Shown here: positions 8,466 through 18,519 of the stretch, one piece after another
Layout: every line of letters starts with the position of its first letter
Numbering within the stretch: position 1 is the first letter of the stretch
Assembly: GCA_002352105.1 (NCBI GenBank)
Contig: DEHV01000080.1
Coordinates: forward strand, 5,231 to 69,230
Direction: 5' to 3'
Length of the DNA: 64,000 nt
Source: Chitinophagaceae bacterium UBA2791
GTDB taxonomy: Bacteria; Bacteroidota; Bacteroidia; Chitinophagales; Chitinophagaceae
The notes under the pieces: model-generated
Database searches by the model: none
What the model saw: the letters and a program-made list of their open reading frames with translations, nothing else
What the model was told of the DNA's origin: nothing
Position numbers and translations under genes: made by a program

Positions 8466-8987
8466 ATGCGAAATGTTCTTTTACGAAAAATCTCCCAACT
8501 GGTAATCTTTCAGGCAGCGCTATGCGCCCTGGCAACCTACCTGATCTCCCGGATATCCCTAATGGGGCGTATCGGTATCGCGACATTTTACAAGGAATAT
8601 AAATTCCTCCGTTCGCCATGGCAAACCTATCTTTCCATATTCATTATACAACTGCTGATCATTTTATTGCTGTATGCGCTGCACAAGCGATTTCTTGGGA
8701 GGATAACCATACGTGCATCTGTTATTGTACTGATCCTTTCCGCAATAGGGCTCTGGGCTACCTATTATGATTTCCAGCACACTTTTTCCCATAGGGTTCT
8801 CCGGGAGAGATTTCATCTCGGGTTCTATCTTTTCTGGATCGGGCTCATGATCACGAGCCTGTTTTTCATGATTGCCGCCCCTGCGAAAAAGGAAAAAGAT
8901 ATACAAACCCCGTTTCCTGAGGATCCATTGTCCCCAGGCCCTGAGCCATATAAAACCGGAAATAACAACAATACGGGTCTATCCTAA
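8466..8987 (+). CDS. Hypothetical integral membrane protein (4-5 TM helices)
   Basis: Several hydrophobic helices are present. No family was recognised. Confidence 0.45.
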   Translation: MRNVLLRKISQLVIFQAALCALATYLISRISLMGRIGIATFYKEYKFLRSPWQTYLSIFIIQLLIILLLYALHKRFLGRITIRASVIVLILSAIGLWATYYDFQHTFSHRVLRERFHLGFYLFWIGLMITSLFFMIAAPAKKEKDIQTPFPEDPLSPGPEPYKTGNNNNTGLS

Positions 8988-9827
8988 AATAGACCTGCGA
9001 ATCTCGTTGACAAAGGAAAAGGAAACATTAAGCGTAGAAGCAATTTTAGCATCGTCATAATCCGTATGCTGTATCAGACATTTTACAAAATCGGCATTCC
9101 TTTCAGAGGTCGCTTTTTTATAACCCATTTGCATTCCTTCTTCCAGCCCTTGCCGGTAACGCAAATCATTTTTTAAATTGTAAGTAATGGCCATATATTG
9201 TTCCTCCTCCAGAATGATTTGTTGCACACTTCTTAATTCACCAAACACTTCCAATTGCATAAGCTTTTGGTTTAGCTTCTGCAGATCTTTACTTAACAAC
9301 AGCTGCAATTTATATAAAATATTTCTAATAACATCTCTTTTCCTTTCAGGTGTTGATACGCCTGTAAATAAAGCCAGCATTATCTCCTCCGGCACTTCAG
9401 AGTCCAAAAACATCGAAGGATCCAATTCCTTGAAATCTATAATCTTATACCGATAAAACAAGTTGTCAAAGCTTATCTCCTTAGTCATTTTCATCCTTTC
9501 TTCTCCTATATAAATAACAGCTCCAATCACCGGAATCTTATATTTATTCCAGATCATTGCATGATACAAAAGCATCCGGCTACACATATCCATGTCATTT
9601 GAAGCCTGCCATTCTATATGAAGAATGCATTCTTCTTTTTGAGGAGAGCCTATCTTAAATAACATATCCGTTTCTCTCTCAAGCGTACGCTGCAGTTTAC
9701 GCGGGAGTTTAACGATATCCGATACCTCGACTCCCATAACCCTCCTTAACAAAGAAATGGTGGGGCCGTAAAAGCTTTCCTGAATAATTCTGTCGAATTT
9801 ATTAGCCATACCTCTTTCGGCAGTCAA
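8979..9827 (-). CDS. Rpn/YhgA-like PD-(D/E)XK recombination-promoting nuclease / putative transposase family protein
   Basis: ETDMLFKI...ILHIEWQASNDMDMCSRMLLYHAMIW...PVIGAVIYIG matches the aD...hiEfQs..d..m..Rm..Y core of the family. The gene is visibly AT-richer than its neighbours. Confidence 0.6.
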   Translation of the reverse strand: MTAERGMANKFDRIIQESFYGPTISLLRRVMGVEVSDIVKLPRKLQRTLERETDMLFKIGSPQKEECILHIEWQASNDMDMCSRMLLYHAMIWNKYKIPVIGAVIYIGEERMKMTKEISFDNLFYRYKIIDFKELDPSMFLDSEVPEEIMLALFTGVSTPERKRDVIRNILYKLQLLLSKDLQKLNQKLMQLEVFGELRSVQQIILEEEQYMAITYNLKNDLRYRQGLEEGMQMGYKKATSERNADFVKCLIQHTDYDDAKIASTLNVSFSFVNEIRRSILG

Positions 9828-9936
9828 ATTACCAAAAGGGTGAAATAGGCATACAGTGTTCTAACGGCAAAAAAAGGGTATTTTAACGAGGGCAACAGCC
9901 TCACATCAGCATTTTAATGTATCGCGTATCCGGCTT

Positions 9937-10677
9937 CTATTTTTTCAATATATCCCTGACCCAGGTCTCTTTTATAGGATCGCCTTTGGAACTTAATCCG
10001 GAGTGGAGCCACTCGCCGTTTTTAAGACCGGCATCAAAACTAAGGCTTGCCCCCACCCTTTCGCTATCGCGCGAGAAAAATTCGATATGTTCAACGTATT
10101 TGCCATTCTCAAAATCATAAGAGCCGCCGCCTGTTCCGAAAAACTCCTTTGTTTCGGTATTAATAGCAAACCATTGAAACCTTGTAGAAGAAAGTATTTT
10201 GATGGTTTTCCTGGGCGACAGTTTTATCGGATTCATTTTAGATCCATCCCATCTTCCATTGATCCGCCAGCAGCCTGCCAGTCCTTTGTCGCCACGGTCT
10301 ATGCGCGTCCATTCCTGCTTTACACCGTTAAAATGGGTTGTCAGTTTATCCCCCGATATCTCGATCTTCGTAGACAGGGTCTTGCCTACCTTATCCTTCT
10401 CCGCCGAGTTAAATTCTATCTGGATAGTAAGCGTATTACCGGCGAAAGAAGTTACCCCTCCATAGGTATAGTCAAACTTTTTCTGGTCTTTGTTATAGCT
10501 TGTATACGAGGTATAATCATCCTGGAAAACCAACACCTGCTCGCCGGCGCCGGAGGATGATTTCCATGCGCCCTGCAAAGGATTGCTCTGCGCCTGGCTG
10601 CTGGCCAGGAATGGAATAAACGCCAGGGCCAATAAACCGAAGATCGAAAGGGTTGATGTTTTTTTCATATGCGACAA
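9937..10677 (-). CDS. Secreted protein with two lipocalin-like repeats
   Basis: Signal peptide MKKTSTLSIFGLLALAFIPFLASSQA. Two internally similar halves: LQGAWKSS... and LAGCWRINGRW... Confidence 0.55.
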   Translation of the reverse strand: MSHMKKTSTLSIFGLLALAFIPFLASSQAQSNPLQGAWKSSSGAGEQVLVFQDDYTSYTSYNKDQKKFDYTYGGVTSFAGNTLTIQIEFNSAEKDKVGKTLSTKIEISGDKLTTHFNGVKQEWTRIDRGDKGLAGCWRINGRWDGSKMNPIKLSPRKTIKILSSTRFQWFAINTETKEFFGTGGGSYDFENGKYVEHIEFFSRDSERVGASLSFDAGLKNGEWLHSGLSSKGDPIKETWVRDILKK

Positions 10678-10739: not shown

Positions 10740-11162
10740 TCATTCCCTTTCCAACCGGAATACTATGGGCTGTTTTTTATACGATTTAACCGGGCGACCA
10801 TTCTGAATCGCCGCCGACCATTTGCCGCTTCTGCGGATAACGCGCTCCGCCTCCTCCCTGAGCTCGTCCGGCCCGCTGATGGCGACCACTTCCGACACCC
10901 TGCCGTTATTGTCGACAATAAACTGCACTACCACGGTTCCTTCTATGCGTGTTTCAATAGCCGCTTCGGGATACCTCAGCGTTTTGCCCAGGTAACGCCT
11001 CCAGGCCTCAATGCCTCCGGGATACGCAGATTCTATTTCCACTGGTATCATTCCCTGGCTCTCGCCGGCGCCAGGCTCCGCGGGCGATTCGATCACGCCG
11101 GTTCCATATGCGGTCGGCGGAGCGGTGATCAGGTCGTCGTCCGGCCCTTCCAGGTTTTCCAA
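10740..11162 (-). CDS. TonB C-terminal domain protein, apparently 5'-truncated (possible pseudogene)
   Basis: YPGGIEAWRRYLGKTLRYPEAAIETRIEGTVVVQFIVDNNGRVSEV...GKWSAAIQNGRPV is a TonB_C fold signature. The only start is a TTG. The frame stays open upstream to ~11300 but has no ATG, signal peptide or TM anchor. Confidence 0.6.
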   Translation of the reverse strand: MENLEGPDDDLITAPPTAYGTGVIESPAEPGAGESQGMIPVEIESAYPGGIEAWRRYLGKTLRYPEAAIETRIEGTVVVQFIVDNNGRVSEVVAISGPDELREEAERVIRRSGKWSAAIQNGRPVKSYKKQPIVFRLERE

Positions 11163-11409: not shown

Positions 11410-14040
11410 ATGTCCTCTTCGCAAAGAACTATTATTGCGCATAGTGGTCATCGTGATCTTATAGAAAACGATCTCCAACGCATCTCGGATGCTGTAACGG
11501 AGAAGCTTCTAAAAATATCTTCGGAACAATACGACCGGTTTGTATTGCTCACGGGTATTGCATCGGGAGCCGATTGGCTGGCGGCAAATGCGGCTGCGGG
11601 CCTGGGCATGTCTGTTGTTTTACTAACGCTTTCCGAGCCTGACGAGAACGCCCGTATAGAACAGCTGAAGCGGCAATTCGGCTCCCGCATAACCGTTCGT
11701 CCGGTCCGCCCGGCCCCTGAAGCCCAGTCGTCTTTAGCCGCTTACGAAGCGCTTGCGCAAATACTCGCAGAGGAAGCCGACCATCTGATACTGCTATGGG
11801 ACGGAGTAGATACCGCTAAAGCCGGCGGCTGCTCGGAAGTAGCAAGAAAAGTCATGAATATGCCCGGCAAGGAAAAAGGGTTTCGCGGGCAGCTGCATCA
11901 ACTGATCGTACCCAGGCTTTCCAATAAATATCCGCTATGCAGCAATATCTTCCACGACAACTACAAATTTCCCCCTCCCGGAATTTTTGAATGGGCCACA
12001 ACCGTATTCCCCAAACAGTCGTACCAGGACCGGGTTTCCTGGGCTAACCGATACATTATGTACAATGAAAACTTCTGGCGCTTCCTGCTACCGAGTTTTT
12101 TAGTACTGTTCACCATGGGTCTCGGATACATCGGCTTTCTCCAGTTGGAAAAGACCCTGAACGGCAATGGCGCAGGACCCGTCGCCGCCAATGCCAGGCT
12201 GGACGCATTTTTCAATGCCGCCAACCTGATCACCCTCAACGCATCGGCGCTAAACGTAACGGAAAAGGTCCCGCTGATGCTGAATATCGCGCGATTCACC
12301 GGGCTGCTTTTTATCCTCAACGCCTTTATCGTGGCCTTCATGCTGGCCATCGGCAGCAACAACAAAAACCTGATCCGCTTTTTCCTTTGGAAGCTGGCGG
12401 GATATCACAATATTCATTTGGTCATCGGATTAAACAGTCTCAGCTACCCGCTGGCCATTGCCCTGAAACAACAAGGCGCTAAGATCATCGTGGTAGACAA
12501 AGATCCGGATCCAAATCTCAAAACCGAAGCTTCAAAGCGAGGCGTACGCGTCATGAACGGCAGCGCTCATTCTGCTGCATTCCTGAAACGCATCGGGGCC
12601 CATCGCGCCAGGAATACCTATATTCTTGAAACGGAGGATATGGAAAACATCAGAACCCTTCATGAACTGGACCAGCTATGGGCCCAATTTCCGGATACGG
12701 AAAAGCAATGTTATGTTCAGCTCAAAACATCGCGCGCCGCTGAATTCATAGGAAGACCAGGCAGGCTCTCCAGCCATGTTAATGTCAGAAGATTTAATTT
12801 TCATGAAACGATCAGCCGCAAGCTGCTGATCCGATACCCGGCGGACCGGTTCCGGCCTGGCTCGCATTCAGGCGCCGAAATACTCCTGTTCGGTTTTGGA
12901 GAGATGGGCAGACAACTCCTGCTCAGCCTGTTACAGGTCCTGCAACCGGATGCTTCCCGCCGCATCAATATTACCGTTTTCTGTAAGGATGCTGCGGCAG
13001 AGAAGGACTCGTTCTTTCAGCAGTACCCCTGCTTATGGCACGACGCTGTTCACAACCCTCTTTATGAAAAATCCTATGCTAAAAAAATAAGAGCATTGAT
13101 TTTCCCGGAAGACATGGTGGTATTCAAAGAACTTCCCTTATCAGACGCGCTTTATTTCAACGATACATCCCTGGTAAGAGCGCTCTCCGGGAACTGCGCG
13201 GCAACCTTCTATTTCTGCCTGGAAGAAGCGGCGCTAAACGCCGCCTATCTTCATGGACTATTGGGTAAAATCGGTCAGCGCGATCTGGACCTTCAACTTT
13301 TCTGTTATTTCAACCTTCCGGGAGAAAAGGAGACGGACCATGTCGCTTATATACTGAACAACCAGATCCCGCATACTCCTGTAATATTATTCGGACGCAT
13401 GGAAGAAGAATGCCGGGCCCTGGCTGCGGAAGATTTCACCATTGACGACCTGGCCGCGCTCATCAACTACTGGTACGCCTATAAAACGCCGGCCAGGGAA
13501 TGGATCGCAAAACCCCGAACAGTGATCCGACTGGCCCGGGAGGACTGGAAAGTATTGCCCTATGCCCATCAGGAAAGCAGCCGTCAGGCAGCAGATCATA
13601 TTTGGCCAAAGCTTCGTCATATCGGCGTCTCGCCGGATCAGCTGCGCCGCTCTTTAGCAGATAGCGACAAAAGAAAACAACTGCTCGCCGAAGCTGCGGA
13701 ATCTGACAATGAAAAATACCTGCAACTCTCGCGAATGGAGCAACGGCGCTGGTGCGCAGAGAAACTGCTCAGCGGTTTCCTTCCTTTACAGGATGTATAC
13801 CCCGACAGTATTGAAAATATCCGGGGATGGATCTCGAAATGGAACGACCCCGATGATCCTGGCTTTAAGAAAAAATACCAATCGCAAAAATTACATATCG
13901 ACCTGGTTCCATTCGATGAGTTGTTTGACGGCGTTATCAACATCAGGGGATCTGCGAGGGCCCATTCCGAAAAAAACAAGGACAGCGCACAGATCGAAGG
14001 CATTCCGTATTTTCTGTATGTGTTGTTCAACAGCAAATAA
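11410..14040 (+). CDS. Multidomain membrane protein: SLOG (YpsA/LOG-like), 2 TM helices, two Rossmann/TrkA_N-like domains and a RyR domain
   Basis: The first ATG in the long ORF lies beyond the antisense overlap with the TonB fragment, giving 876 aa. Domain motifs are listed in the sub-features. A 35-nt gap separates it from the downstream TIR-STING gene. Confidence 0.8.
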   Translation: MSSSQRTIIAHSGHRDLIENDLQRISDAVTEKLLKISSEQYDRFVLLTGIASGADWLAANAAAGLGMSVVLLTLSEPDENARIEQLKRQFGSRITVRPVRPAPEAQSSLAAYEALAQILAEEADHLILLWDGVDTAKAGGCSEVARKVMNMPGKEKGFRGQLHQLIVPRLSNKYPLCSNIFHDNYKFPPPGIFEWATTVFPKQSYQDRVSWANRYIMYNENFWRFLLPSFLVLFTMGLGYIGFLQLEKTLNGNGAGPVAANARLDAFFNAANLITLNASALNVTEKVPLMLNIARFTGLLFILNAFIVAFMLAIGSNNKNLIRFFLWKLAGYHNIHLVIGLNSLSYPLAIALKQQGAKIIVVDKDPDPNLKTEASKRGVRVMNGSAHSAAFLKRIGAHRARNTYILETEDMENIRTLHELDQLWAQFPDTEKQCYVQLKTSRAAEFIGRPGRLSSHVNVRRFNFHETISRKLLIRYPADRFRPGSHSGAEILLFGFGEMGRQLLLSLLQVLQPDASRRINITVFCKDAAAEKDSFFQQYPCLWHDAVHNPLYEKSYAKKIRALIFPEDMVVFKELPLSDALYFNDTSLVRALSGNCAATFYFCLEEAALNAAYLHGLLGKIGQRDLDLQLFCYFNLPGEKETDHVAYILNNQIPHTPVILFGRMEEECRALAAEDFTIDDLAALINYWYAYKTPAREWIAKPRTVIRLAREDWKVLPYAHQESSRQAADHIWPKLRHIGVSPDQLRRSLADSDKRKQLLAEAAESDNEKYLQLSRMEQRRWCAEKLLSGFLPLQDVYPDSIENIRGWISKWNDPDDPGFKKKYQSQKLHIDLVPFDELFDGVINIRGSARAHSEKNKDSAQIEGIPYFLYVLFNSK
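11425..11859 (+). other. SLOG domain (YpsA/LOG/DprA superfamily) of the 876-aa protein
   Basis: IIAHSGHRDL, VLLTGIASGADWLAANAA (glycine-rich loop after a beta-strand), ADHLILLWDG and AGGCSEVA (compare LOG PGGxGTxEE). Collinear with B. subtilis YpsA motifs ITGYKPHELG / ISGQLGVELWAAEVV / LLLLYD. Confidence 0.6.
12076..12354 (+). other. Two-TM module with an intervening pore-helix-like segment
   Basis: TM1 is FWRFLLPSFLVLFTMGLGYIGFL and TM2 is VPLMLNIARFTGLLFILNAFIVAFMLAI. The connecting LDAFFNAANLITLNAS resembles the K+-channel pore helix and filter (DALYFSVVTLTTVGYG) but lacks GYG. Confidence 0.4.
12409..13404 (+). other. Two tandem Rossmann (TrkA_N/RCK-like) domains
   Basis: The first, IHLVIGLNSLSYPLAIALKQQGAKIIVVDKD, has a degenerate GxGxxG. 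The second, ILLFGFGEMGRQLL, has an intact GxGxxG. Confidence 0.5.
13447..14019 (+). other. RyR (ryanodine-receptor repeat) domain region
   Basis: W..LPYAHQESSRQAADHIWPKLRHIG and EQRRWCAEKLLSGF...KLHIDLVPFDEL...EKNKDSAQIEGIP match the bacterial RyR-domain pattern (He.W..ek...GW...hp.lvpydeL...eK..dr..v..ip). Confidence 0.55.
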
Positions 14041-14075
14041 ACATTGATAAGAATGCTCAACCTAAAACCTTAGCA

Positions 14076-14540
14076 ATGAAACCAGAGATCATCCTGTTCT
14101 CTTCTTCCGGAAGTTATGTTATTGCAGAAAGCATTTATACTAACCTGAAAGACAACCATTCAGTTACCTTATGGAGGCAGTTTTTCGGAGAGAACAGGAC
14201 TACTCCGCTCTGGACCTTCTTCAAAAAACTGTTTCACTACGACTACGCGATCCTTGTGCTGGCTAACGACAGCATTATCTATGATAAGGTAAGCGAAAAC
14301 CATCAAGCCTGGATACCAAAAGACAATGTGATATTTGAGCTCGGCGCCACAATGGCAAGACTGGGCCCTCAGAAAACCATCTTGCTCGTTCCCGATCAGC
14401 CGCAGGTGCGCCTACCCGGCTATTTCGACGATGTACAACCCCTGCTTTTCACCTATCATAACCAGGAACACTTTACCGAAGAAGAGAAAATTGCCGCCAC
14501 AGCCGAAGCCGCCCGCAGCATATCAGCAACACTCGACAAC
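14076..14540 (+). other. TIR-like (CAP12/PF10137-type) domain
   Basis: IILFSSSGSYVIAESIYTNL, DYAILVLANDS and PKDNVIFELGATMARLGPQKTILLV match vFIgSSse...fDfAvfvltpDD...aRdNVifElGlf.G.LG..rv.ll. The putative catalytic Glu88 is encoded at nt 14337-14339. Confidence 0.8.
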
Positions 14541-15104
14541 GCTGGATCAGAGGCATTTCATGCAGAACTGCCGGCGCAGGGCCTGGCTCATGCCTACCTC
14601 AATAATTTTTTCTTCCCGGTGCGTCTCTCCAATATCCCCCAGGAATTAAACATTGACGGGCAAACGCTTTTATGGGCCCCCGAAGCGGGAATGAGTTTTA
14701 CCATTATCATACCGGAAGAGATCATGGGAAGAGAAAAGGCCAACCGCTATTTCGAAAACCTGTCGCAATGCCGCCGGGTCAGTTTCCGGGCAAACGACGG
14801 CAGGGACCTGGGCTTGTATGTTTTGCCGAGAAAAACCGAAAATGATCCCCTTCATATTCTCGACATACCCACTACGCTGCTGACTGCCGAAAACATCATT
14901 GAACGTATTGAAAGGTTCTGGAGGGATAAGGACAAAGAAAGGGTATTACAGACAGATAATGAGTTTACAGCCGCGTTGAAAACAAGAGAGATCCTGAACT
15001 TTGAACGAACGCTGCACAGTATGGTAGACGGCAGGTTCGATAACGTCTATATTGTCGCCGGCAAAGATCTTCCGGAGCATCTTGCCATGCTGCAATCGCT
15101 ATAA
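14076..15104 (+). CDS. TIR-STING fusion protein (CBASS-type NADase effector architecture)
   Basis: 342 aa. It combines an N-terminal TIR-like domain with a C-terminal STING fold; see the sub-features. Confidence 0.85.
   Translation: MKPEIILFSSSGSYVIAESIYTNLKDNHSVTLWRQFFGENRTTPLWTFFKKLFHYDYAILVLANDSIIYDKVSENHQAWIPKDNVIFELGATMARLGPQKTILLVPDQPQVRLPGYFDDVQPLLFTYHNQEHFTEEEKIAATAEAARSISATLDNAGSEAFHAELPAQGLAHAYLNNFFFPVRLSNIPQELNIDGQTLLWAPEAGMSFTIIIPEEIMGREKANRYFENLSQCRRVSFRANDGRDLGLYVLPRKTENDPLHILDIPTTLLTAENIIERIERFWRDKDKERVLQTDNEFTAALKTREILNFERTLHSMVDGRFDNVYIVAGKDLPEHLAMLQSL
14568..15101 (+). other. STING cyclic-dinucleotide-binding domain
   Basis: QGLAHAYLNNFFFPV aligns with human HGLAWSYYIGYLRLILP, FTIIIPEE with LYILLPLD, GRDLGLYVL with DRVYSNSIYEL and HILDIPTTLLT with CVLEYATPLQTL. 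Confidence 0.75.
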
Positions 15105-15142: not shown

Positions 15143-16729
15143 TTAGCTCCACCGGTCGGGATCCGCCATCGCATAGTCCTGTTCATATTTTTCCGGAATA
15201 TTATTGTTTATCATACAGCCCTCTTCCAACGAGGGGAAGATATCTTCCAGCGTGGTCACTTCGTTCCTGAATATCCGGCGATAGATATGCGACCGGGTAA
15301 GATTAGACGAGCGATCGATCCCTGCGGAACCCATTAGCTCGACAAAATTCTTAACCGTCTCCCGGTGATAGTTTGCCACGCGTGTTTTTTTATCGGCCAC
15401 TACCAGTCCCACGCTTAGCGATGGATTTTGCGTAGCCACTCCCGTAGGGCACTTATTGGTATGGCATTGTAGCGCCTGAATGCATCCGAGGGCCATCATC
15501 ATGGCGCGGGCGCTGTTACAACAATCTGCCCCCAAAGCGATAGCCCTCAACAGGTGAAAACCCGTTAATATTTTTCCCGATGCAATGATACGGATATGCT
15601 TACGGATCCCGAAGCCTACCAGCATATTCTGCACGAAGGCAAGTCCATCCATCATGGGCGCGCCCACATGGTTGGAAAATTCCTGCGGCGCGGCCCCGGT
15701 TCCGCCCTCGCCGCCGTCTACCGTAATAAAATCGGGGTATATATCCAGCGCTATCATCGCTTTGCAAATACCGATGAATTCACTTTTTCTACCTACGCAT
15801 AATTTTATTCCCACCGGTTTTCCATTCGACAATTTGCGCAGCTGATGAAGAAACAATACCAGCTCGCGGGGCGTATTAAAAGCAGTGTGATAGGGGGGCG
15901 AATAAACCGCAGTATAGGGTTGCACATGGCGAATGGCCGCAATCTCAGGCGTATTTTTCCTGGCAGGCAGGATCCCCCCATGCCCCGGTTTAGCGCCTTG
16001 CGACAATTTCAGCTCGATCATTTTTATCTGCGGTATCGAAGCGTTTTTGGCAAACAGCTCAGGAGAAAAATTTCCCTGCTCATCGCGACAGCCAAAATAG
16101 CCCGTTCCTATCTGCCAGATGATATCGCCGCCGGGCTTCAGATGATAGGGGCTGATCCCTCCCTCGCCGGTATTGTGCGCAAAACCGCCCAGCCTGGCGC
16201 CTGCGTTAAGCGCTTCAATTGCGTTGCTGCTAAGGGAGCCGAAGCTCATCCCCGACACATTAAAAATACTGGCGCTATAGGGTTGGGTACAATCTTTATT
16301 GCCTATAAGCGCTCGGGGGTTATGGTCCAGCTGATGAAAATCTTTGGGAGCGATAGAATGGCTCAACCACTCATAGCCTTCTTCATATACGTCCAGCTGC
16401 GTTCCAAAAGGCATGGTATCCAGCTCGCTCTTTGCGCGTTGATAGATCGTTGACCTGTCGATCCGGTTAACGGGTCGTCCGTCGATATCAGACTCTATAA
16501 AATACTGGTACAGCTTGGGACGAAGCGTCTCCATCCAATACCGCATACGCCCCACGATCGGGAAGGTCCGCATAAGAGAGTGTTTGGTCTGCGTCATATC
16601 AAAAACGCCCATCGCTCCTAAGATCAATGCAATAACCAGCAATATGTACCAGGCGCCGTTCACAAAATAACCCAGCAGCGCGCCAGCCAATATGGCAATA
16701 ATTTCGAATACGATAAACTCCTTTCGCAT
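15143..16729 (-). CDS. FMN-binding glutamate synthase family protein (GltB domain-2-like) with N-terminal TM helices
   Basis: LKLSQGAKPGHGGILP, ITVDGGEGGTGAAP, ASGKI and CNSARAMMMALGCIQA..CHTNKCPTGVATQ. Confidence 0.9.
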   Translation of the reverse strand: MRKEFIVFEIIAILAGALLGYFVNGAWYILLVIALILGAMGVFDMTQTKHSLMRTFPIVGRMRYWMETLRPKLYQYFIESDIDGRPVNRIDRSTIYQRAKSELDTMPFGTQLDVYEEGYEWLSHSIAPKDFHQLDHNPRALIGNKDCTQPYSASIFNVSGMSFGSLSSNAIEALNAGARLGGFAHNTGEGGISPYHLKPGGDIIWQIGTGYFGCRDEQGNFSPELFAKNASIPQIKMIELKLSQGAKPGHGGILPARKNTPEIAAIRHVQPYTAVYSPPYHTAFNTPRELVLFLHQLRKLSNGKPVGIKLCVGRKSEFIGICKAMIALDIYPDFITVDGGEGGTGAAPQEFSNHVGAPMMDGLAFVQNMLVGFGIRKHIRIIASGKILTGFHLLRAIALGADCCNSARAMMMALGCIQALQCHTNKCPTGVATQNPSLSVGLVVADKKTRVANYHRETVKNFVELMGSAGIDRSSNLTRSHIYRRIFRNEVTTLEDIFPSLEEGCMINNNIPEKYEQDYAMADPDRWS

Positions 16730-17658: not shown

Positions 17659-18519
17659 ATGATTAAAAAAGCGCTAATGGGAAAAATTATATATCCTTAT
17701 CAGAATACTTCTCTAAAAGATTTATCGCAAGAGAAATGGAAAGATATTCCCGGCTTTGAGGGTCTATATCAGCTATCAAATTATGGCCGGATAAAATCCC
17801 TGGAAAGATGGATTGATACGGGCCGGTTTGATTCGCTAAAATCTGAAAGGATTGTTAAACCACGAATAGTTATATCTCCTAAGGGAGATGTTAGTTTACA
17901 GATGAAACTACATAAGGAACGAAAACGATATTGCTTTTCTGTAGCCCGATATGTATATTTTCTTTTTATAAATCCTTTTGATTTGGACGATCAGTCGCTC
18001 GTTGTCACTTTCAGGAATGGCGATCATTTATTCTTGCGCCATAAAAATCTGAAATTACAAACGCGCAGTGAAGTAGCCAAATCGGTCATTTATACCGGCA
18101 AACGCATAAGAAGATCCCAGTCAAACATCAAACCGGTAACGCAATACGATATGCAGGGGAAAAGAGTAGCCGTTTTTGAAAGTACCGTGGCTGCCGCGCA
18201 AGCGACCGGACATCACAAAAGCCTTATAAGCGGCGCTTTGTCTGGCTCCCTGCTCACCGCCGGAGGCTTTATCTGGAGAAAAGGCAAGGGGAAGTCCCGC
18301 ATTGACGCATCTGCTGTTCGGAAAAGGCTTGCTAAAAGACATCAGAGTAGCAGCAAAAAGGTAGCCCAATTCACCCTGAGAGGCCGGAAAATAGCCGTCT
18401 TCGCCAGTTTCGTAGAAGCGGCGAAAAAAGTGGGTGGAAGTCCCAAACAAATATCCCATGCCGCAAGAGGAATATCCTGGACTTCCTATGGGTATAAATG
18501 GGAACTAGAAGATGATTAA
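17659..18519 (+). CDS. NUMOD4 + 2x NUMOD1-like homing-endonuclease-related DNA-binding protein (HNH apparently degenerate)
   Basis: WKDIPGFEGLYQLSNYGRIKS is a NUMOD4 motif. Two C-terminal repeats, VTQYDMQGKRVAVFESTVAAAQATG..GGFIWRK and VAQFTLRGRKIAVFASFVEAAKKVG..YGYKWE, look NUMOD1/IENR-like. The gene is AT-rich. Confidence 0.55.
   Translation: MIKKALMGKIIYPYQNTSLKDLSQEKWKDIPGFEGLYQLSNYGRIKSLERWIDTGRFDSLKSERIVKPRIVISPKGDVSLQMKLHKERKRYCFSVARYVYFLFINPFDLDDQSLVVTFRNGDHLFLRHKNLKLQTRSEVAKSVIYTGKRIRRSQSNIKPVTQYDMQGKRVAVFESTVAAAQATGHHKSLISGALSGSLLTAGGFIWRKGKGKSRIDASAVRKRLAKRHQSSSKKVAQFTLRGRKIAVFASFVEAAKKVGGSPKQISHAARGISWTSYGYKWELEDD

Follow-up and report, generated by a model that had tools for sequence, protein, structure and literature searches.

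We describe here a two-gene locus at positions 11410-15104 (+ strand) of a 64-kb stretch of contig DEHV01000080.1 from Chitinophagaceae bacterium UBA2791; the whole stretch is called the window below. The second gene (B) encodes a TIR-STING protein, and the first gene (A) encodes a membrane protein with an N-terminal SLOG domain, a channel-like pore module, two Rossmann domains and a C-terminal RyR domain. The pair is a real and conserved two-gene system, a variant of TIR-based immune signalling that was apparently not described before, and we have high confidence that A and B work together. The two same-strand open reading frames (ORFs) and the 35-nt distance between them, as given in an earlier first-pass annotation of this DNA, were reproduced, and both genes are probably co-transcribed.

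11410..14040, + strand: gene A, ORF of 876 amino acids, predicted ligand-gated membrane effector
14041..14075, + strand: spacer between A and B, 35 nt, read from the sequence
14076..15104, + strand: gene B, ORF of 342 amino acids, TIR-STING protein

Across homologous loci the gap between A and B ranges from 62 nt down to overlapping frames (by ORF calling), with 10 nt between the called genes of Chitinophaga sp. S165 (L001).

Genomic partners of the two families

The survey of gene neighbourhoods, which the first-pass annotation had suggested, shows that the pairing recurs. In all 15 loci examined with relatives of B of at least 47% identity there is a membrane protein headed by a SLOG domain, which is encoded directly beside TIR-STING in 13 of them; none of the 15 carries a cyclase. 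A partner of the A type adjoins TIR-STING in the window and in L006-L011, L048, L059 and L060. TIR-STING follows directly after A in the window, in Pedobacter L048, in L060 and in L006-L011 (Chitinophaga, Flavihumibacter and Chitinophagaceae metagenome-assembled genomes, MAGs), while in L059 both genes are divergently adjacent. The A protein of L048 is only 26% identical to that of the window. Two further loci (L012, L025) carry the A type at 3.5-7 kb from TIR-STING, with NB-ARC-TPR STAND genes in between. Overall, the adjacency of A and a TIR gene is kept in at least 10 loci, at A identities of 26-62% and in several families of Bacteroidota. In the three remaining cases TIR-STING adjoins another type of protein instead, with a SLOG domain and four transmembrane helices ('SLOG + 4TM'; L049:7208-8989, L062:3238-4773 and L063:7231-9030). 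These proteins of 511-599 amino acids have a head like the SLOG domain of A (hidden Markov model E-values of 2e-36 to 6e-22) and four hydrophobic helices, and are devoid of RCK and RyR domains. As a separate observation, two unrelated contigs encode a TIR_2-SspB fusion of 267-268 amino acids one to two genes downstream of TIR-STING (L059:8029-8832 and L062:4787-5593).

More distant relatives of B (at most 43% identity) are found beside cGAS/DncV-like nucleotidyltransferases (CD-NTases). L050 is a canonical operon of the cyclic-oligonucleotide-based antiphage signalling system (CBASS), with SMODS and E2 genes, and several others appear to share contigs with CdnE-type cyclases (P0240/41/42/49/55 versus P0068/65/71/50/57). 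The possibility that a CD-NTase is the conserved partner elsewhere thus holds for these relatives, but not for the clade of B itself. The STING family underwent a partner switch, with a cyclase in the sister clade and a SLOG-headed membrane protein in the clade of B.

That no CD-NTase lies beside the pair, as first noted for the operon, extends to all A-B-type loci examined. PADLOC detects no CD-NTase in the 51 other ORFs of at least 100 amino acids in the window, a phmmer search with the L050 CD-NTase against the ORFs of the window and of all fetched loci returns its self-match only, and no SMODS gene is found beside any A-B pair examined. Unlinked cyclases were also looked for in pair-carrying genomes: there is no Chitinophagaceae entry among 64 CdnE-like matches, a search of limited sensitivity that also depends on naming. 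B does combine a cyclic-nucleotide sensor with a killing domain (STING and TIR, as in Cap12), yet the operon is without a CD-NTase; because this defining cyclase is missing, the A-B locus is not a CBASS.

Seen from A, the family is rare and patchy. Close homologues number 15 in a collection of 5.8 billion clustered proteins, and an exhaustive profile search at E<1e-30 yields 348 representative clusters, of which some are headed by a SLOG domain and some start at the pore module. Of the loci seeded with A, 18/23 SLOG-bearing ones have a TIR or STING gene no farther than 3.6 kb away, versus 5/18 SLOG-less ones (Fisher p = 0.0018). The concern that homologues of A might be widespread housekeeping genes without such enrichment is therefore contradicted by both the rarity of the family and its TIR enrichment.

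The TIR partners of distant A relatives are diverse, comprising TIR-Sel1/TPR (L014, L021), TIR-NB-ARC-TPR (L015, L032), TIR-ankyrin (L034) and plain TIR proteins. In four Alphaproteobacteria MAGs (L033, L039, L041, L043), SLOG-bearing A genes are each followed by a convergent TIR_2-FGE-sulfatase (C-type-lectin-like) gene. Divergent STING proteins are encoded directly beside distant A relatives in L013:8853-9908 and L022:12995-14065; the weak match of their N-terminal half is to nucleoside 2-deoxyribosyltransferase (DrHyd/TIR-like), and not to the CAP12 TIR. Other distant relatives have STAND NTPases or WD40 proteins as their neighbours. Since A also pairs with TIR proteins lacking STING, the TIR domain is the common denominator among the partners of A, as the SLOG head on a membrane protein is among the partners of the B clade.

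In other genomes the neighbours are of a defence-island type (nSTAND1 with CHAT, KAP NTPase with AbiH, LRR-Roc-TIR, STAND NTPases). A scan of IMG/VR viral contigs found no relatives of A. Individual cases may be recorded here. In Chitinophaga sp. S165 (L001:11759-18120) genes for an nSTAND1 NTPase and a CHAT protease come directly after the A-B pair, and one representative of the A family has a fused CHAT domain. Runella defluvii (NZ_JACIBY010000014.1; L014, L016) encodes two A paralogues separated by about 19 kb; their island also has at least five TIR genes and large TPR proteins.

Domain architecture of the TIR-STING and membrane proteins

Profile and structure searches recovered the domains that the first-pass annotation had read into the two sequences: TIR fused to STING for B, and for A an N-terminal SLOG domain, two transmembrane helices, two Rossmann/TrkA_N-like domains and a C-terminal RyR domain. 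The two domains of B are the following:

14076..14480, + strand: TIR domain of the CAP12/PycTIR class, aa 1-135, Pfam PF10137, catalytic Glu E88 in DNVIFELG
14553..15029, + strand: STING cyclic-dinucleotide-binding domain, aa 160-318, Pfam PF20300

Both exceed their Pfam thresholds, CAP12-PCTIR_TIR at aa 10-114 with 43.5 bits (cut-off 24.7) and prok_STING at aa 166-313 with 51.5 bits (cut-off 27.1). In addition, the PADLOC model for CBASS TIR effectors matches B at 5.7e-33. Its closest PDB entry is SfSTING/Cap12 (7un8, 4e-9), with an alignment over the full length, and the STING domain also aligns to PDB 9lmq. B is a distant member of Cap12, because its score with the NCBIfam Cap12 equivalog (79.9 bits) is far below the cut-off of 450. 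E88 aligns with the NVVFEFG motif of SfSTING, whose catalytic residue is E84 (PMC9402430), and lid residue R243 corresponds to SfSTING R234. In an alignment of 62 homologues, the TIR stretch D83-G90 with E88 and the STING positions Y174, N177, F178, R243 and D263-IPTTL are invariant or nearly so. This invariance of the pocket spans cyclase-linked and SLOG-linked homologues alike. Conservation of these catalytic and pocket residues implies that both the TIR enzyme and the nucleotide pocket of B are under selection.

The architecture of A is less readily recognized. Scans of the single sequence against Pfam, NCBIfam and PADLOC give TrkA_N as the sole match; family profiles and structure prediction were needed to detect SLOG and RyR. 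Searching the PDB with a full-length profile of A yields RCK matches plus weak RyR matches only. An AlphaFold2 (AF2) model of the whole protein, built from the 15 homologues, reaches a pLDDT of 75.8 and a pTM of 0.72, and its top PDB matches in Foldseek are GsuK (2.6e-7), the TrkA ring, full-length MthK (1.6e-5) and Slo1/BK. GsuK, the top match, has two RCK domains per chain and was crystallised with NAD and ADP. On this basis we divide A as follows:

11410..11943, + strand: SLOG domain, aa 1-178, by AF2, Foldseek and sub-threshold profiles
12073..12147, + strand: outer transmembrane helix M1, aa 222-246, by hydropathy, AF2 (helix 220-250) and hhalign to MthK M1
12187..12252, + strand: re-entrant segment like a pore helix, with degenerate filter, aa 260-281, ARLDAFFNAANLIT-LNASAL, short helix aa 260-275
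12274..12351, + strand: inner transmembrane helix M2, aa 289-314, by hydropathy and AF2 (helix 289-314)
12412..12819, + strand: RCK1 / TrkA_N Rossmann domain, aa 335-470, glycine motif degenerate (GLNSLS)
12874..13425, + strand: second Rossmann/RCK-like domain (RCK2), aa 489-672, intact GFGEMG (GxGxxG), by AF2 secondary structure
13507..14037, + strand: C-terminal RyR domain, aa 700-876, pocket Q778, W781, H829 and D858

The SLOG head emerges from structure rather than from profiles. Modelled separately, aa 1-183 reach a pLDDT of 84 and a pTM of 0.83, and Foldseek places DprA (3uqz) first (E 4.6e-5), followed by ShosA (8zva) and HpDprA, with TM-scores of 0.54-0.59 for DprA/ShosA; LOG proteins (1rcu, 5wq3, 1weh) and the MoCo carrier 6y01 come further down the list. 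All profile matches stay below threshold. Among 28 diverse N-termini, Pfam YAcAr (a SLOG family related to cpYpsA) matches 15 (best 1.3e-4), DprA three and YpsA one, and the best PDB match of the N-terminal profile is YpsA 2nx2 (E 0.0099). LSDAT_prok gives a weak match to one of the 28 (E 0.12), which shows no specific tie to the TRPM clade of SLOG domains. Near-invariant loops are GHRD (G13, H14, D16), AxGAD (A51, G53, A54, D55), WDG (130-132) and GG (139-140); by their position they would be the ligand loops of the Rossmannoid fold. Fold similarity to DprA, LOG and YpsA together with these glycine-rich loops places the head in the SLOG superfamily (Smf/DprA-LOG).

The two transmembrane helices turn out to be part of an M1-pore helix-M2 module that is collinear with MthK. 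A PDB profile alignment of A to MthK begins at the end of M2, and hhalign of the 54-member A-family profile against MthK residues 24-203 (the MthK sequence being entered by hand) gives a probability of 96.9% and an E-value of 1.9e-10, with M1, pore helix, filter, M2 and RCK in the same order. TLNAS of A comes to lie under TVGYG of MthK; the family consensus is TLNxS, and the conserved pore columns are A266, F267, F268, N272, L273, T275, N277 and S279. The pore module is conserved across phyla in the A family. A thus has the M1-pore helix-M2 module followed by RCK that characterizes the MthK/GsuK type, with T-L-N-A-S in place of the K+ selectivity filter T-V-G-Y/F-G, and Pfam Ion_trans_2 does not match it. 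Because of this filter and the missing Ion_trans_2 match, A should not be classified as a K+ channel; its sequence is that of a putative P-loop-channel-like protein with a non-K+-channel filter.

RCK1 is detected by Pfam TrkA_N at aa 337-422 (3e-10, 40.9 bits, cut-off 23.8), and its PDB matches are the RCK proteins 1id1, TrkA and MthK. TrkA_N is found in 50/54 members of the family and Slo-like_RCK in 12/54. The second Rossmann domain was recognized by AF2 and Foldseek, in which GsuK and TrkA, both with tandem RCK domains, align to A over 420-550 columns. G495 of its glycine motif is among only eight columns that are invariant across all 54 sequences.

For the RyR domain, a family profile limited to the C-terminal ~110 residues of A matches a RyR1 chimera (6uhi) at 7.5e-8 and also RyR2/3 repeats. 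Bacterial RyR proteins (3nrt/6uag) score ~5e-4 with the same profile and RyR3 Repeat12 (R12) ~1e-3, and HxxW, H and D line up. Pfam RyR (PF02026) is found in 16/54 family members (best 2.4e-7), the A protein of the window alone being below the Pfam threshold. At the level of the family profile, A hence contains a repeat match with the HxxW...H...D pocket. In the 54 sequences E777, R780 and W781 are invariant and H778, H829, K857 and D858 nearly so; these pocket positions are the most conserved of the whole family. The A protein of the window has Q778 where at least 90% of the family has His. Phage RyDEP proteins with RyR domains bind or cleave 2'/3' cyclic ADP-ribose (cADPR) via the aligned pocket positions (PMC13232231), and by analogy a role in ligand binding may be carried over to the pocket of A. 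A tblastn search with the RyR region of A against 50,697 phage genomes gave no match, and RyDEP is for this reason not directly aligned with A.

A model for signalling and its alternatives

The two common denominators, TIR and a membrane-bound SLOG head, are explained most simply by a Thoeris-like model. A functional coupling of this kind between the TIR-STING protein and the SLOG membrane protein had been proposed in the first-pass annotation and is strongly supported by comparative genomics, as an association. We consider it on balance probable that A and B constitute a two-gene, Thoeris-like abortive-infection module in which the product of a STING-controlled TIR opens a channel. The direction and chemistry of signalling, the receiving domain, ion conduction, the defence phenotype and the origin of the STING ligand are predicted from sequence as follows. 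B would act as sensor and transducer, with its intact STING pocket binding a cyclic dinucleotide that comes from a cyclase encoded elsewhere, from the phage or from some other origin. Ligand-bound B would form filaments, for which SfSTING is the precedent, thereby switching on the TIR domain and cleaving NAD+. A would be the effector, a channel that probably assembles as a tetramer in the manner of MthK/GsuK, with an M1-P-M2 pore, a gating ring of tandem RCK domains and a filter (TLNAS) that is not selective for K+. The SLOG and/or RyR and second Rossmann domains would bind what the TIR makes from NAD+ (ADP-ribose, ADPR, or a cADPR isomer); the pore would then open, membrane potential or ion gradients would collapse and phage replication would stop. 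The SLOG domain of Thoeris ThsA reads 3'cADPR (background in 10.64898/2025.12.03.692087). In A it is not the sole candidate receptor: the RyR domain with the most conserved residues and the second Rossmann domain with its intact GxGxxG may serve as well.

A more specific version is put forward only tentatively, namely that STING is the first relay in a chain leading from a cyclic dinucleotide over TIR and its NAD+-derived product to a dedicated cation channel equipped with the SLOG module of TRPM2 and a Repeat12-type RyR module. If true, this would be a complete three-tier cascade of cyclic dinucleotide, ADPR-type messenger and ion flux, and channels gated by (c)ADPR would have a forerunner in prokaryotes. 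Should the genomes carrying the pair have no cyclase at all, STING would read a ligand that is not made by a CD-NTase.

Several points weigh against a Thoeris-like module. The TIR domain of B is of the CAP12/PycTIR class, whose members are known so far as NAD+-depleting terminal effectors, producing mainly ADPR and nicotinamide, and not as signal makers. SLOG is not the sole link to TIR, because the five SLOG-less relatives mentioned above also have a TIR gene within 3.6 kb, and stand-alone TIR-STING genes exist among the relatives of B of at most 43% identity (L051, L061). Within A, Q778 occupies the position of the catalytic His of RyDEP, the glycine motif of RCK1 is degenerate in the clade of the window protein, and ion conduction is a prediction only, given the degenerate filter and the lack of an Ion_trans_2 match. 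A source of the STING ligand was not found near the pair. Upstream of A there is no copy of the Bacteroidota -7 promoter motif TAnnTTTG, for which the window shows no enrichment either, and no promoter was identified. The flanks of the pair in the window are mostly housekeeping (metabolic/regulatory) genes. Finally, PADLOC has no model for A, so that present defence-system finders would see in B an orphan CBASS effector and overlook A entirely.

The best surviving alternative, which we nevertheless judge unlikely, is that A senses the depletion of NAD+. B would then be a terminal NADase, NAD(H) bound to the Rossmann/RCK domains would keep the pore of A shut, and loss of NAD+ would open it as a second kill switch. 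This would fit the CAP12 class of the TIR domain and the TIR genes next to SLOG-less relatives of A. TrkA_N/RCK domains bind NAD(H), ADP or ATP, as illustrated by the ligands of the top match GsuK, and RCK2 has retained its GxGxxG with the family-invariant G495. However, NAD+ depletion leaves unexplained why TIR-STING also pairs with SLOG + 4TM proteins lacking RCK, why TIR genes are enriched near SLOG-bearing members and why the RyR pocket is the most conserved feature.

Quite improbable, in our view, is a scheme of parallel effectors, in which A and B independently bind one cyclic (oligo)nucleotide from an unlinked CD-NTase and the output of the TIR domain is irrelevant to A. The intact STING pocket does require a cyclic dinucleotide made somewhere and, with no linked cyclase at the pair, a trans-acting signal is needed anyway. 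CBASS operons can moreover encode more than one effector. Yet the A family pairs equally regularly with TIR proteins that have no link to STING or cyclic dinucleotides, and the known ligands of SLOG and RyR domains are of the ADPR type instead of cyclic dinucleotides.

No greater weight is given to A as a regulator that would determine the threshold for lethal NAD+ depletion by B. Its SLOG and/or RyR domains would bind or degrade TIR products, or A would respond to a membrane or ionic disturbance upstream of B, in line with the alternative named in the first-pass annotation, in which A precedes STING. H778, the counterpart of the catalytic His of the RyDEP glycosidase, is retained in most family members, and some SLOG clades (LOG) are hydrolases. 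But the clade of the window has Gln at this very position, A has no nucleotide cyclase domain to make a STING ligand, and an 876-aa channel-like protein with a pore module conserved across phyla is unlikely to be a buffer. In CBASS and Thoeris, membrane-spanning partners of signalling enzymes are effectors.

Hardly any credence is left for a pair without a defence role, with A a housekeeping channel or transporter regulator and B a decayed CBASS remnant adjacent by chance, or with both in physiological c-di-GMP signalling: the database label 'NAD-binding/TrkA family protein' and the metabolic and regulatory flanks in the window stand against a rare and patchy family, a pairing that recurs at 26-62% identity in several families of Bacteroidota, immune-type TIR/STAND partners in defence islands, and purifying selection on the catalytic Glu of the TIR domain and on the pocket of STING. 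A coincidental neighbour or decayed remnant was accordingly rejected on the recurrence of the pairing across divergent loci, and a housekeeping TrkA-like role of A on rarity and genomic context.

Relation to known systems and surroundings of the pair

With the type I CBASS of Sphingobacterium faecium (SfSTING of the Cap12 type and CdnE), B shares the two-domain architecture, the catalytic Glu, the lid Arg and the DIP(S/T)TL motif that reads guanine. The A-B operon differs in that the window and the related loci are without a CD-NTase, and in that B belongs to a separate, SLOG-partnered clade.

Eleven Thoeris types have been described, including those with SLOG effectors (I, III, IX) and one with an ion-channel effector (X) (10.64898/2025.12.03.692087). 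Like types I (ThsB TIR and ThsA SIR2-SLOG), III and IX, the locus has a TIR gene beside a SLOG effector, and its TIR partners come with variable sensor modules. The TIR gene is adjacent to the effector in a conserved operon, and with its SLOG fold and RyR domain A offers receptor domains for an ADPR derivative, ligand binding being predicted. Unlike in type I, TIR is here fused to STING and belongs to the CAP12 class, not to ThsB_TIR, and the effector is channel-like rather than SIR2. A also carries two further candidate nucleotide sites (RyR and Rossmann), and its SLOG profile matches are sub-threshold. Type X, in which ThsB and the 'ion channel' ThsK form a TIR and channel pair that gives phage defence (10.64898/2025.12.03.692087), is a precedent for A-B, which likewise couples a TIR protein to a membrane effector of the ion-channel type. 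ThsK, however, is a 208-aa Ion_trans_2 protein without SLOG, RCK or RyR. A common effector family of ThsK and A was considered and rejected: the effector gene of a type X locus, L052:4358-4984, matches Ion_trans_2, and hhalign against the A family gives it a probability of 0.07%. Among the effector candidates that Yirmiya et al. (2025) left untested is 'SLOG and 4TM' (10.64898/2025.12.03.692087), which has the same domain make-up as the partners in L049, L062 and L063 and is likened to them by architecture. TIR proteins in CBASS contexts were discarded by these authors, and STING, TrkA and RyR are absent from their supplementary tables (10.64898/2025.12.03.692087). In the full-text literature searched we found no description of a TIR-STING protein with a SLOG/RCK/RyR partner, an earlier mention in neighbourhood surveys being possible.

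Compared with GsuK and MthK (and also the TrkA gating ring and BK/Slo), A shares the order of M1-P-M2 and then RCK, and like GsuK and BK it has two Rossmann domains in each chain. It differs by TLNAS in place of TVGYG, by its N-terminal SLOG and C-terminal RyR domains, and by an immune context instead of ion homeostasis. The SLOG-like MHR1/2 region of TRPM2 binds ADPR. A unites on one polypeptide both ligand modules of the Ca2+ channels linked to (c)ADPR, TRPM2 and the ryanodine receptors (Repeat12), although its pore is of the K+-channel/RCK type and not that of TRP or RyR channels. The HxxW/H/D pocket residues of RyR domains align with the A family, the window protein having Gln at the position of the catalytic His of phage RyDEP.

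If the proposed coupling is true, a bacterial STING is wired to something besides a neighbouring cyclase and a CAP12-class TIR feeds a downstream receptor besides draining NAD+, which blurs the border between CBASS and Thoeris. STING would be placed upstream of a second receptor, with the modules of TRPM2 and ryanodine receptors beside an enzyme class that makes (c)ADPR-type signals. The A family itself would represent a new, large and conserved family of channel-like effectors with SLOG, RCK and RyR domains, regularly linked to TIR, and would provide a handle both on what RyR and SLOG domains sense in cellular proteins and on the origin of the (c)ADPR-channel coupling of TRPM2 and ryanodine receptors.

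In the window, the pair is bounded as first annotated. Upstream, on the opposite strand, lies a remnant of a tonB-like gene, a 140-aa ORF at 10740-11162 with a TonB_C domain alone, and downstream a convergent Glu_synthase/FMN gene at 15143-16729 (- strand). The G+C content of the locus is unremarkable. The reading frame of A is already open from 11011, and the 876-aa start at 11410 (MSSSQRTIIAHSGHRD) agrees with the alignment of homologues. NCBI record HRE51147.1, from a Flavitalea sp. MAG, corresponds to A with the same start and is labelled 'NAD-binding protein'; HRE51146.1 corresponds to B, labelled 'nucleotide-binding protein'. Some gene callers start A at 11011 (1009 aa), overlapping the TonB_C ORF, while NCBI keeps 876 aa.

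Three further ORFs in the window deserve mention. A YhgA/Transposase_31-like (Rpn-type) ORF is located at 8979-9827 (- strand), ~1.6 kb upstream of A, where the local G+C content is lower (0.38 at 9001-10000). Approximately 2.5 kb downstream of the pair, an ORF at 17659-18519 (+ strand) resembles NUMOD4/NUMOD1 homing endonucleases (PADLOC HEase, 5.6e-21). About 20 PADLOC candidate-defence models of the 'PDC-S02' type match one ORF of the window (best 1.7e-40), other than those at 8979-9827, 9937-10677 and 17659-18519.

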